IMG/VR virus record: IMGVR_UViG_2551306491_000022 | Origin: a virus | Taxonomy: Duplodnaviria > Heunggongvirae > Uroviricota > Caudoviricetes | Reading direction: 5' to 3' (one strand) | Length of the DNA stretch: 9,690 nucleotides | Part shown: positions 1 to 9,690 of the stretch, one piece after another | How the letters are laid out: every line of letters begins with the position of its first letter | Position numbering within the stretch: the stretch's first letter is position 1 | The notes under the pieces: generated by a model | The model's input: only the letters and a program-made list of their open reading frames with translations | Database searches by the model: none | What the model was told of the DNA's origin: nothing | Translations under genes and position numbers: made by a program

Positions 1-282
1 TTAACGCCGTAACCGCTCCGGCTTCTTCCAGTGGTACGTAATTTTATCTTTCTCCCGATACAGTTCAACGCGGCGATTGTAGGCCAGCATTTCAAGAACG
101 CGGATCCGTATGTTGCGCATATCCACATCATTAAGCTGGATACCATCACGGCGCATCACCTCAGCAACAACACGCACATAATTTTCGGCGGTCACGCTGT
201 CCGGCTGCGTGGCCTGTTCGTCATGCTGCTGGCTGATTCCGGTAACGCGGCGGATTAATCCCAGTAGTTCGGCTTCTGTCAT
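1..282 (-). CDS. Hypothetical protein (93 aa), first gene downstream of intergenic cassette A; function unknown
   Basis: Complete ORF with ATG at 282..280 and TAA at 3..1. Run of G (GGGGG) about 5 nt upstream of the ATG as a Shine-Dalgarno. No recognisable motif. Confidence 0.5.
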   Translation of the reverse strand: MTEAELLGLIRRVTGISQQHDEQATQPDSVTAENYVRVVAEVMRRDGIQLNDVDMRNIRIRVLEMLAYNRRVELYREKDKITYHWKKPERLRR

Positions 283-309
283 TGTGCCCCCATCGCGCTG
301 GTGAAGAAA

Positions 310-540
310 ACAAGCTCAGATTTTTTGTAAAGAATCTGTCACGCTAAAAGATGTCGAACAAAAATTAACCACAATCATCATCTTTTTTGCATCAACCACA
401 TTAAAAACAACAGGTTACACACATGATGATGATGACGATAAAATCACAAAAATGCGCTTTTTTCCGCGCCGCCCGCCCCGTGTTCAGGCCCACCCCACCA
501 GGAGGACCCGCAAAAAAGGCGGCTGGTGCCGCCTTGTTGT
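310..540. repeat. Intergenic cassette A, paralogous to 2850-3080
   Basis: Collinear similarity with cassette B at an offset of about 2540 bp. Shared blocks: TTTTTTGTAA (321-330 vs 2861-2870), GAACAAAAA..AACC (356-370 vs 2896-2910), triplet repeats (ATG)4 vs GTGGTGGTGATGGTG, a GC-rich core AAAAATGCGC..TTTTTCCGCGCC..CCGCCCCGTG..CAGGCC..CCCCACCAGGAG..CAAAAAAG (448-517 vs 2986-3056), then a 6-bp hairpin. Confidence 0.6.
512..533 (-). terminator. Intrinsic terminator after the protease/capsid gene
   Basis: Plus strand reads AAAAAA(512-517) GGCGGC(518-523) TGGT GCCGCC(528-533). On the minus strand this is a 6-bp GC stem with a 4-nt loop followed by UUUUUU, 7 nt downstream of the capsid stop (542..540). 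Confidence 0.6.
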
Positions 541-8119: not shown

Positions 8120-8350
8120 TTACCGCCATTTTTTTGGCCTGCCTCCGGTCTTCATGGATGCCGGACGTACAACCTTATCAATACTTACAGCCAGATTTCT
8201 GGAAGCCCCACGGGATACCAGGAAATCTACTACCTGTTTTTTTGATGGGGCCGTCGTTCTGTCCTCCGGATCGTAGGTTGACCAAAATTCATGCTGAACC
8301 ATCAGGGCCAGTTGCAGCCCGTCGCAATTGCATCTGAAATTTGTTTGCAT
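8120..8350 (-). CDS. Hypothetical small protein (76 aa from the ATG; track ORF starts at a TTG at 8371)
   Basis: ORF between int and alpA, followed by a minus-strand terminator and preceded by a perfect TATAAT (minus strand, plus coordinates 8397-8402). No clear Shine-Dalgarno at the ATG. An antisense ORF (8071-8337, +) overlaps, so the coding strand is uncertain. Confidence 0.3.
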   Translation of the reverse strand: MQTNFRCNCDGLQLALMVQHEFWSTYDPEDRTTAPSKKQVVDFLVSRGASRNLAVSIDKVVRPASMKTGGRPKKWR

Positions 8351-8448
8351 CTTAACAGTTTCATTTTTCAAGGCCTCGTCGTTAAATGTGATGCAATTAT
8401 ACGACGGTTTTAAATGGTTTTCGTAGTTTTTACTGGTTTTCTGTACAG

Positions 8449-9690
8449 CTAAACGGCTCGGATACCCCTTTTACCACTGGCGAGGGTTACGCCCGTCGCC
8501 GCAGCCTCGACAAATTCGCCCCACCAGCGCATAAGCACGATGCGTTTTTCTATGTAGTTGCTCCGGTTGTATGCCCGTCTGACTTCGTTGGTGTCGACGT
8601 GGGCAAGTGCGGCCTCTATTACGTCCGGCTCAAAGCCTTCTTCGTTCGCTGCTGTGCTGAATATGGCGCGTAATCCATGAGACACCAGCACGCCAGCGAA
8701 TCCCATGCGTCGTAATGCTGCGTTAGCGGTCTGGCTGTTCATCGGCTGCTGTGGGTCTTTCAGACTCGGGAAAACATAATCGCGGTGGTGGCTGATTGGT
8801 TTCATAGCCTCCAGCACTGCCATAGCCTGGTCACAAAGCGGGATAACGTGGTCGCGGCGCATCTTCATGCGTCCGGCGGGTATGGTCCAGCGTTGCGCTT
8901 CCATGTCGATTTCTTCCCAGCGTGCCGACGATGCTTCAACGGGACGGGTTACGGTCAGTAACTGCCATTCAATCAGTAATCTGGTCTGCCGTTCTGTTGC
9001 CGATACTGATAAAGCCTGCATAAGCTCCGGCAGCTGTTCGGGGCGGATTGTTGGCATATGTTTTTTTACAGGGGAGGGGAACGCCTTACGCACATTCATA
9101 GCCGGATTGGCATCAATCATCCCACTATTGGCGGCGTAATCCATTACCTCATTTATACGCTGTAAAACTCGCTTGAGCGTTTCCAGGTTGCCACGTTCCT
9201 TGATGGGGGTAAGCACCTCAACGAACCTGCGAGCGGTCAGGGTGTCTATTGGCGTGTTGCCGATGAACGGGAATACATATTTTTCCAGCGATCGCCAGAT
9301 GTCTTTAATCGTATTGGGGGCCAGATTCTGGCTGATTTTCACCTGGTACCATGCTGTTGCCACATTTTCGAACGTGTTCCCTTGTCTTCGGGCCTCTGTC
9401 TCTCTTTTTTGCCTCTCGTGGTCCTGCGGGTCAGTTCCGGCACGAATTAACGCCCTGTACTCGCTACGGCGTTTTCTGGCATCAGCCAGGGAAACATCAT
9501 CAAGCGATCCAAAACTCAGCAATATTCTTTTTTTGTCCGATGGTCGGTAGTAGGAAAATCTCCAGAGTTTTGATCCGGACGGTTTGATCAGGAGAAAAAG
9601 CCCTCCGCCGTCCTGTAGGGTGTATTCCTTTTCTGCTGGTCTGGCTGCTTTGATCTGTACTGTGGTTAATGGGGGTGTTTTTCTCGCCAT
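8449..9690 (-). CDS. int: Tyrosine site-specific integrase, P4 family
   Basis: 413-aa ORF whose ATG is the last three bases of the window. N-terminus MARKTPPLTTVQIKAARPAEKEYTLQDGGGLFLLIKPSGSKLWRFSYY is the conserved P4-type integrase N-terminal signature. C-terminal catalytic region has HGLRAIFST...RAYNRSNY (His/Arg and Tyr motifs). Confidence 0.9.
   Translation of the reverse strand: MARKTPPLTTVQIKAARPAEKEYTLQDGGGLFLLIKPSGSKLWRFSYYRPSDKKRILLSFGSLDDVSLADARKRRSEYRALIRAGTDPQDHERQKRETEARRQGNTFENVATAWYQVKISQNLAPNTIKDIWRSLEKYVFPFIGNTPIDTLTARRFVEVLTPIKERGNLETLKRVLQRINEVMDYAANSGMIDANPAMNVRKAFPSPVKKHMPTIRPEQLPELMQALSVSATERQTRLLIEWQLLTVTRPVEASSARWEEIDMEAQRWTIPAGRMKMRRDHVIPLCDQAMAVLEAMKPISHHRDYVFPSLKDPQQPMNSQTANAALRRMGFAGVLVSHGLRAIFSTAANEEGFEPDVIEAALAHVDTNEVRRAYNRSNYIEKRIVLMRWWGEFVEAAATGVTLASGKRGIRAV

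Follow-up and report, generated by a model that had tools for sequence, protein, structure and literature searches.

The 9,690-nucleotide stretch of viral DNA analyzed here (IMG/VR record IMGVR_UViG_2551306491_000022, hereafter the window) comprises most of an 11.2-kb phage-inducible chromosomal island (PICI) of the Gram-negative EcCICFT073 type, which is integrated at the 3' end of the tRNA-Pro gene proL of Escherichia coli. We assign this explanation as a whole, including the life cycle proposed below, a probability of about 0.8. The element is a classical Gram-negative PICI, neither a capsid-forming PICI (cf-PICI) nor a P4-like satellite, and it combines one capsid gene with a copy of the packaging site of its likely helper instead of encoding a complete head of its own. 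An earlier note, which was made from the letters of the window alone, had proposed a PICI-type phage satellite that makes the head itself and relies on a helper phage for everything else. The assignment to the PICIs is confirmed by gene order and proteins, which match those of EcCICFT073. The proposal of an own head is unsupported, because portal and terminase are missing from the island: in four genomes, the complete element contains no gene for a portal, a connector, an HNH protein, a small (TerS) or large (TerL) terminase subunit, a tail, or lysis. Both a portal and a terminase are prerequisites for making and filling a head. In contrasting the element with P4-like satellites, the note had relied on the wrong reference, since classical Gram-negative PICIs commonly carry a major capsid gene, which is their most frequent late gene (21 of 29 reference elements) and dispensable for transfer (PMC10111431).

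The origin of the window in E. coli is evident from 10 complete genomes that contain at least 80% of its length at 96 to 98% identity. In four genomes, the element is located between yejO and the proL tRNA-Pro gene adjoining yejM, and comparison with the empty site of K-12 gives a size of about 11.2 kb (positions 11142 to 22354 of locus L001). A tRNA scan of the window itself was negative, the tRNA gene being situated just outside: in four related genomes, an intact tRNA-Pro gene is found about 220 bp beyond the integrase end, and its 3' end is repeated at the distal end of the island as a fragment with a 3-nt deletion (TGGTC---ACGAGAG versus TGGTCGGCACGAGAG). Both the tRNA gene with a repeat to the right and the far attachment (att) site, for which the note had suggested a search, are thereby accounted for, the latter in a degraded form. 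Such a damaged tRNA fragment has already been described for PICIs at tRNA-Pro (PMC10111431). The recommended look to the left for portal, terminase, and connector genes yielded none in four near-identical copies; beyond window position 1, i.e., after the gene of a 93-aa protein, 0.5 to 0.9 kb of noncoding, repeat-rich DNA is followed by the end of the island. As findings that would speak for an ordinary prophage or against a capsid protein, the note had named tail and lysis genes in the flanks and a lack of HK97-fold similarity. The flanks consist of chromosomal genes (yejO on one side, tRNA-Pro and yejM on the other), so there is no complete prophage in the att-bounded element, and HK97-fold similarity is present. 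In locus L001, the distal noncoding stretch (11142 to 12000) runs for about 860 bp from the last gene to the distal att site and harbors several repeat families, with four GTCAC motifs at about 11668 to 11705. Part of this stretch is common to the matching end of the cf-PICI EcCIEDL933 (L003, 13357 to 13949) despite the different integrases.

The features by which PICIs are recognized are found throughout the island. It is bounded by att sites and falls into the size range of about 10 to 15 kb, it has a terminal integrase gene with an alpA-type gene beside it in the same orientation, it encodes its own replication protein (Rep) with an origin on the 3' side, it lacks tail and lysis genes and a complete head module, and it is related to validated PICIs. 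Almost all genes of the window are located on the minus strand, and the module order is integration (Int and an AlpA/Vis-like protein), regulation (an Icd-like protein and antisense genes of the ribbon-helix-helix [RHH] type), replication, and a short late zone. The late zone contains only a 75-aa protein, a fusion of a protease, a scaffold, and an HK97-type capsid protein, a cos-like site, and the 93-aa protein. Among the open reading frames (ORFs) of the window that were compared with Pfam, PHROGs, and NCBIfam, none was recognized as a gene for a terminase, portal, tail, or lysis protein, in agreement with the note, which had seen no tail, lysis, or terminase genes in these 9.7 kb. The late zone differs among the genomic copies; the capsid module of the copy in strain ST130 is 99.9% identical to that of the window.

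From int to the 93-aa last gene, the island follows EcCICFT073, an element of the same size, gene for gene. The shared order comprises int, a helix-turn-helix (HTH) gene, an antisense YlcI/YnfO gene, an Icd-like gene, small genes, a DUF4222 gene, a replication enzyme, the genes of an 83-aa protein (p83) and of a single-stranded DNA-binding protein (SSB), a coupled small gene, the capsid gene, and the gene of the 93-aa protein (p93). Ten window proteins have homologs in EcCICFT073 with identities of 25 to 91%. Both elements have the origin 3' of the replication gene, a late capsid gene, and two cos-like sites, and portal, terminase, tail, and lysis genes are absent from both. They differ in the capsid cassette, which is composed of lambda-type E and D plus RppA in EcCICFT073, whereas the window contains a single fusion gene and neither RppA nor PerC. 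The replication enzyme is a primase in EcCICFT073 and a RepA-type helicase in the window, and the integrase of the window, which uses tRNA-Pro, is only 25% identical to that of EcCICFT073.

The capsid gene (540 to 2429, minus strand) encodes a protein of 629 aa that is, as judged from sequence comparison and structure prediction, a genuine fusion of three parts: a ClpP-like prohead protease (aa 1 to 185, nt 1875 to 2429), a linker or scaffold (aa 186 to 329, nt 1443 to 1874), and an HK97-fold major capsid domain (aa 330 to 629, nt 543 to 1442). The note had likewise read the protein as a ClpP-like protease fused to an HK97-type capsid protein, and family, profile, and model evidence agree. Pfam identified CLP_protease at residues 41 to 173 (3.8e-33) and Phage_capsid_4 at residues 330 to 623 (7.8e-55), and the NCBIfam family "ClpP-like prohead protease/major capsid protein fusion" was matched with 890 bits at a cutoff of 475. 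A profile of the C-terminal domain matches the structure of the capsid protein of phage JBD30 (8rkx, 2.5e-11). The AlphaFold model of the capsid domain, which was built on 29 diverse sequences, has a predicted local distance difference test (pLDDT) score of 82, and its top PDB matches are HK97-fold capsids and encapsulins only (304 at an E value of ≤0.001), with a probability of 1.00 for the capsids of HK97, T1, and JBD30 and for encapsulins. Protease activity is predicted: the putative catalytic Ser (GMAASMAS) and His (MMIHAP) align with solved ClpP at the GMAASM and MIH(A/Q)P motifs, and both motifs are kept in the island and phage homologs.

The capsid gene is under strong purifying selection and is not a relic. 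It is full length in every copy compared, the ratio of nonsynonymous to synonymous substitutions (dN/dS) is 0.08 to 0.12 within the lineage at a dS of up to 0.57, and 143 of 5,426 complete genomes contain the capsid module over at least 80% of the query length. In the phage collection, no record exceeds 60% identity to the island fusion protein, and the best match, from a phage converting to Shiga toxin (Stx) 2a production, reaches 52%. A sister lineage with 62 to 64% identity, of which one cluster alone occurs on 365 contigs, belongs to similarly built islands at other att sites. The same architecture is combined with different integrases. Between the two island lineages, the identity is 64%, compared with 54 to 60% to the phage versions, which in turn are 77 to 95% identical among themselves. 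In both island lineages, the linker is 30 to 35 residues shorter than in the proteins of phages Stx2_95 and mEp460, and the 295 aa that precede the capsid domain in the window protein are one of the shortest such regions in the family (median of 344 aa in 84 full-length representatives). The fusion family as a whole numbers 10,822 representatives. By sequence, the island capsid proteins are a lineage of their own with a shortened linker, and the combination of lineage separation, selection, and short linker indicates a long residence in satellites and a satellite-specific function. We searched the literature and found no paper on this particular fusion-type capsid gene in PICIs. The element could also be regarded as the decaying remnant of a lambdoid prophage or a cf-PICI with a leftover capsid gene, given that it is small, that most head genes were lost or never there, and that the late zone is variable among copies. 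This is very unlikely in view of the intact state of all reading frames (dN/dS of about 0.08), the occurrence of one architecture with different integrases at several att sites, the presence of the capsid module in 143 genomes, and a backbone that is PICI specific and not lambdoid; moreover, a capsid protein with only about 55% identity to any phage version is not a recent leftover.

The capsid gene is separated from the p93 gene by a noncoding spacer of 257 nt. It contains a terminator-like hairpin at about 517 to 538, which precedes a putative packaging site, the cos-like site cos1 (321 to 516, minus strand). Over 199 nt, cos1 is 90.5% identical to the sequence that directly precedes terS in the Stx2a phage Stx2_95. 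The region upstream of terS is the position of cos in lambda-like phages. All matches of cos1 in the phage collection are lambdoid phages; nine records of Stx1- and Stx2-converting phages, including VT1-Sakai, show 88 to 90% identity, and weaker matches were obtained for CP-1639, 1720a-02, mEp460, and Fels-1. The matching DNA is unannotated except in the two weakest phages, 1720a-02 and mEp460, and it is located just before terS in both records checked (Stx2_95 and mEp460). A second, shorter cos-like copy, cos2 (2963 to 3055, minus strand), matches the DNA upstream of terS in Stx2_95 at 83% identity over 94 nt. A conserved core is common to cos1, cos2, the phages, and the sister islands (alignment A2), whereas the downstream cosB-like part matches Stx2_95 in cos1 only and not in cos2. 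As direct copies, cos1 and cos2 flank the cassette of the 75-aa protein and the capsid protein, like cos1 and cos2 of EcCICFT073, and such repeats could be recombination handles for the swapping of late cassettes. The arrangement parallels the cos pair of EcCICFT073, an island with two cos sites and an Rpp protein that retargets the TerS of lambda (PMC6739421, PMC9026076). The difference is that cos1 of the window matches the helper type through the cosB-like part, whereas EcCICFT073 has its own cosB, which is read by Rpp-TerS (PMC9026076). A TTG-start ORF of 125 aa (401 to 778, minus strand) spans the cos-like region and the 3' end of the capsid gene, and in some genomes a shorter hypothetical ORF is annotated there by RefSeq (equivalent to window positions 401 to 604; L001, 12401 to 12604). 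The ORF is probably spurious, because it covers a conserved noncoding site.

The cos-like segment points to Stx-converting lambdoid phages as the probable helpers. It was found in 703 of the 5,426 genomes, many of which belong to O157:H7 and other Shiga toxin-producing E. coli, and island-bearing genomes often contain three to five places that match it. The head module of Stx2_95 and mEp460 has the order terS-terL-W-portal-fusion capsid protein, and TerS of Stx2_95 represents the Pfam family DUF1441. Islands of the sister lineage have the cos core only, followed by a DUF1441 gene of their own that is placed like terS in the phages (L005, 12171 to 12656; also in L006 and L007) and whose product is 48% identical to TerS of Stx2_95. 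This gene is absent at the corresponding positions of the window (283 to 320). According to these sequence relationships, DUF1441 appears to be the small-terminase family of the lambdoid phages in question, and some PICIs carry their own copy. The DUF1441 protein was also considered as a candidate for RppA; it is unrelated to RppA and is instead a TerS homolog. An Rpp identity was likewise rejected for p93 and the sister DUF1441 protein, neither of which has a significant match in the PDB, the RppC structure included. Neither an Rpp homolog nor a TerS was found in the window island.

Relatives of the island with the same RepA and a 91% identical capsid protein (L013 to L015) interrupt terL of a prophage after about codon 330; the TerL and portal proteins of this prophage are 94 to 95% identical to those of Stx2_95. 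The embedded islands split the large terminase gene of the helper until excision (e.g., L013, 12764 to 13897; L014, 7174 to 8307). These relatives represent the helper-embedded PICI configuration, for which a 258-bp cos shared between PICI and helper at 90% identity has been reported (PMC10111431). The four-zone scheme established for these elements (PMC10111431) applies to the window as well, i.e., the same integration, regulatory, replication, and late zones are present, with a capsid gene in the latter, and about 200 bp are likewise shared with the helper type at about 90% identity at the position of cos. In contrast to the embedded elements, the proL lineage is integrated in the chromosome and not within a late gene of a helper (four genomes), and its integrase is 37% identical to that of the embedded relatives.

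The cf-PICIs deserve particular attention, because the note had favored a satellite with its own head. Such an island would make complete heads, package itself, and take only tails from the helper. The window shares its backbone and last gene with the cf-PICI EcCIEDL933, in which nine window proteins have homologs, and each of the two islands encodes a capsid protein and a prohead protease. However, EcCIEDL933 has eight head and packaging genes (major capsid protein, protease, portal, closure, connector, HNH, TerS, and TerL) and the window island one. In EcCIEDL933, the portal, closure, connector, HNH, TerS, and TerL genes are located between the capsid gene and p93, where the window has only the 257-nt noncoding spacer. 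The capsid proteins of the two islands come from different families, and a similarity of cos was not found. By definition, a cf-PICI requires an adaptor, a connector, and terL (PMC10085698), all of which are missing here; the island has its own major capsid protein and protease but neither portal, adaptor, and connector nor TerS, TerL, and HNH. Since the complete island lacks portal, connector, and terminase genes in all four genomes, a cf-PICI is refuted for these copies, and we regard it as highly improbable for the window. The common last gene, p93 (1 to 282, minus strand; PHROG 1561, 1.5e-57), is a conserved terminal gene of E. coli PICIs, with identities of 89% to EcCICFT073, 92% to EcCIEDL933, and 74% to the sister lineage. 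Its DNA is present in about 1,330 of the 5,426 genomes, and the embedded relatives have kept only the last 30 codons; no match of the protein was obtained in Pfam or the PDB.

For the classical PICI at proL, the following life cycle is proposed. A lambdoid helper of the Stx-converting/mEp460/Gifsy type would activate AlpA; besides a portal and TerL, such a phage has a DUF1441-family TerS and a fusion capsid protein like that of the island. The island would then excise by means of its P4-family integrase and replicate from its own iteron origin into concatemers, and the TerS-TerL complex of the helper would cut and package the island DNA at the near-identical cos copy. If the terminase of the helper reads the cos of the island, then a TerS or Rpp of its own would be unnecessary. 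The helper would supply the portal, connectors, tail, and lysis functions. With 44.8 kb, four island units correspond to 97% of the 46.3-kb genome of Stx2_95 and one unit to about a quarter, and full-sized and small heads are therefore both conceivable. In the least certain step, the capsid fusion would assemble on or with the head machinery of the helper in favor of the island, by a change of size or by interference, in the manner of Ccm of SaPIbov5.

SaPIbov5 is a cos-type SaPI, a satellite that, like the window island, combines a helper cos with a divergent homolog of the HK97-fold capsid protein of the helper. It belongs to another host, the sequences are unrelated, and the homolog of the window additionally contains a protease and a scaffold-like linker. 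Nevertheless, Ccm is the best precedent for how the capsid gene of the island could work. Ccm reportedly acts by occupying the pentamers of the capsid. It redirects the size and shape of the helper capsid (PMC8569155). That the island protein similarly redirects the assembly of heads, either assembling by itself or coassembling on the portal of the helper, is a tentative proposal that we would rate somewhat below even odds. Other conceivable roles of the capsid protein are pure interference, a backup copy for the embedded relatives, or a function not yet imagined.

In a more far-reaching variant, the single fusion gene would build a small satellite shell on the portal of the helper, which would be filled by the helper terminase via the shared cos. 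The island would then be an intermediate between classical PICIs and cf-PICIs, in which one gene of a satellite lineage makes a satellite-sized head. One gene might be enough in principle, since the fusion is the only head-shell gene beside the portal in the related phages, and the distinct lineage, the purifying selection, the shorter linker, and an island size of about one-quarter of the helper genome would fit as well. But with 54 to 59% identity to the helper protein, compatibility with the portal is uncertain, the capsid gene tested in EcCICFT073 gave no small capsids (PMC6092414), and four units would fill a helper-sized head equally well, so a one-gene head appears unlikely to us. If it were true, Stx-converting phages might also be produced in lower yield.

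As an interference or defense factor, the fusion protein would poison or divert the head assembly of the helper and have no part in the transfer of the island. Interference with helpers is a trait of classical PICIs, a divergent paralog of the helper capsid protein equipped with a protease could coassemble unproductively, and the gene is under selection even though PICI capsid genes have been reported to be dispensable for transfer (PMC10111431). In EcCICFT073, however, the deletion of the capsid or decoration gene did not relieve the interference with lambda, and the DNA that had been packaged was of phage size (PMC6092414). PADLOC revealed no model match and no credible defense gene among 10 small proteins without assigned function, a scan in which the capsid fusion itself was not included. 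Furthermore, a dominant-negative role would need no intact Ser and His in the protease, yet both are conserved. A role confined to interference is accordingly doubtful and, in our estimation, has a rather low probability.

Several points weigh against the explanation of the window as a cos-carrying PICI with an Stx-phage helper. The left end of the island in the genome from which the window was derived is deduced from copies with 96 to 100% identity. The assignment of cos is based on its position and its conservation across phages and PICIs, and the 12-nt cosN of lambda (GGGCGGCGACCT) has no match in the window with up to two mismatches and none in locus L001 with up to one. In a search that displays one place per genome, a helper-type prophage was not established alongside the proL copy, and the connection between island and helper is inferred, as are induction, transfer, and packaging. 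Pfam recognizes AlpA weakly, with 17.8 bits at a cutoff of 21 bits. Finally, EcCICFT073 is the only tested case, and although its capsid protein belongs to a different family, a redirection of size is not the default expectation in light of that result (PMC6092414).

The integration module is located at the tRNA-Pro-proximal end. The P4-type integrase reported in the note is a tyrosine integrase of 413 aa (8449 to 9690, minus strand) with the Pfam domains Arm-DNA-bind_3, Phage_int_M, and Phage_integrase, a score of 556 bits for NCBIfam PRK09692, and 33% identity to P4 Int over 404 aa (E value of 3e-74). AlpA, which the note had also listed, corresponds to an AlpA/Vis-like HTH regulator and excisionase of 68 aa (7746 to 7952, minus strand) that occupies the position of alpA in EcCICFT073. 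Its matches to Pfam AlpA and HTH_17 are weak, and the identification is supported by PHROG 66 and PHROG 2790 ("excisionase and transcriptional regulator," about 1e-7) and by 33 to 38% identity to P4 ORF88/Vis. An ORF of 83 aa between int and alpA (8120 to 8371, minus strand) is hypothetical in the relatives and has no family match. The island has several traits of P4, namely, the integrase family, the Vis/ORF88-like regulator, a size of about 11 kb, a cos of the helper type, and an Icd-like regulatory zone in which the long ORF may resemble eta, and it might be taken for a P4-like satellite with a helper of the P2 type. However, tblastn comparisons of P4 and the window in both directions retrieved only int and ORF88; sid, psu, delta, epsilon, and the alpha primase have no counterpart in the window, and the cos-like site matches lambdoid phages and not P2, in line with a presumably lambdoid helper. 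A P4-like satellite is thus refuted by the genes present, and its probability is close to negligible.

The regulatory zone is dominated by a stop-free ORF of 496 aa (6301 to 7791, minus strand), whose status as a protein gene is uncertain. It begins within the 3' end of alpA, in a "Bro/immunity"-type zone, and runs antisense to four small plus-strand genes at 6467 to 7624. Its amino acid composition looks unlike that of a protein, and it has no Pfam match. The frame is nevertheless open in diverged relatives: it has 560 aa and is fused to the Icd-like protein in L001, 247 aa are annotated in EDL933, and the version of L016 comprises 485 aa with Phage_ASH and Icd-like domains. The long ORF eta of P4 is coupled to an alpA homolog, and its translation prevents termination (PMC10111431); by analogy, the 496-codon frame may be a translated leader like eta. 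The four antisense genes encode a YlcI/YnfO-like protein (6467 to 6685; PHROG 949; 67% identical to the product of an antisense gene in EcCICFT073), a small protein (6743 to 6970), an Arc-like RHH protein (7190 to 7363; PHROG 228; weak match to Pfam Arc), and a further small protein (7421 to 7624). They belong to a module of about 700 bp, consisting of an RHH gene and a small gene, that is tandemly duplicated (6264 to 7010 and 7010 to 7700) with about 80% identity (repeats D1 to D3) and occurs in one or two copies in the relatives. Each copy has a conserved hairpin with a stem of 9 to 11 bp (6695 to 6721 and 7373 to 7399). These hairpins were rejected as structured RNAs, because they fold no better than shuffled sequences (z scores of -1.3 to -1.6). 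No Rfam match was obtained at an E value of ≤0.1, including the C4 and isrK immunity RNAs, which have been reported for some PICIs. In a consensus scan, promoter-like sites were no more common than in shuffled sequences, and the 22 terminator-like sites (12 expected from shuffles) are uninformative. The zone is completed by the Icd-like small protein of the cell division inhibitor family (6113 to 6313, minus strand; NCBIfam phage_ICD_like, 6e-18), with 95% identity to the homolog of EcCIEDL933 and 47% to that of EcCICFT073, and by two small proteins (5893 to 6165 and 5673 to 5903, minus strand) from PHROG families without assigned function, which are 37% identical to their counterparts in EcCICFT073.

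The replication module begins with a DUF4222 protein (5368 to 5667, minus strand; Pfam DUF4222, 2e-23), which is 91% identical to its homolog in EcCICFT073 and 78% to that in EcCIEDL933, and whose gene is translationally coupled to rep. The Rep protein, a RepA/AAA_25 initiator-helicase of 469 aa (3962 to 5371, minus strand; AAA_25, 3.7e-44), has a PICI-type N-terminal domain: residues 1 to 121 (5008 to 5371) are about 46% identical to the N termini of the replication proteins of EcCICFT073, EcCIEDL933, and L005, whereas the C-terminal enzymes behind this shared part differ (primase, DUF927, and D5/DUF5906). This comparison points to domain swapping onto a shared domain, which may contact the origin or the DUF4222 protein. 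The adjacent iteron origin, which the note had recognized together with Rep, is located directly 3' of rep at about 3760 to 3961 and includes the repeat families D4, D5, D11, I2, and I13; 11 GTGGG/CCCAC motifs are present in 215 nt, while 0.45 is expected from the remainder of the window. Mapped PICI origins have the same location, 3' of the replication gene (PMC6092414). The next gene encodes p83, a conserved PICI protein (3508 to 3759, minus strand; PHROG 1231, 1.8e-52) with 84% identity to the homolog in EcCICFT073 and 93% to that in EcCIEDL933. It is followed by the SSB (3089 to 3511, minus strand; Pfam SSB, 4e-16), also correctly named in the note, with 71% identity to the SSB of EcCICFT073 and 96% to that of L005. 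Beyond cos2, the gene of the 75-aa protein (p75; 2426 to 2653, minus strand; PHROG 4934, 5.7e-51) overlaps the start of the capsid gene with its end by 4 nt; the protein shares 38% identity with the corresponding protein of the sister lineage, and a small gene is found at the same position in EcCICFT073.

Taken by itself, the island is an ordinary representative of a satellite family of which thousands of members are already catalogued, and its lineage is very probably already contained in published PICI catalogues. What is new is the pairing of a fusion-type capsid cassette with a cos of the helper type, the inference of Stx-converting lambdoid phages as helpers, and the satellite-specific shortened linker. 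New as well is the location of close relatives within terL of such prophages. The same holds for the existence of matched cassettes, i.e., lambda-type E and D with Rpp in EcCICFT073 versus the fusion capsid protein with or without the DUF1441 TerS homolog. The wider question is why most Gram-negative PICIs keep a capsid gene that was dispensable in the one case tested. In the island at proL, the late module consists of one self-contained capsid gene beside a helper-type cos, and together with Stx phages as helpers, this makes the question straightforward to test. Should the island redirect or poison the head assembly of its helper, this would have consequences for how Stx phages are produced and spread in cattle-associated E. 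coli.

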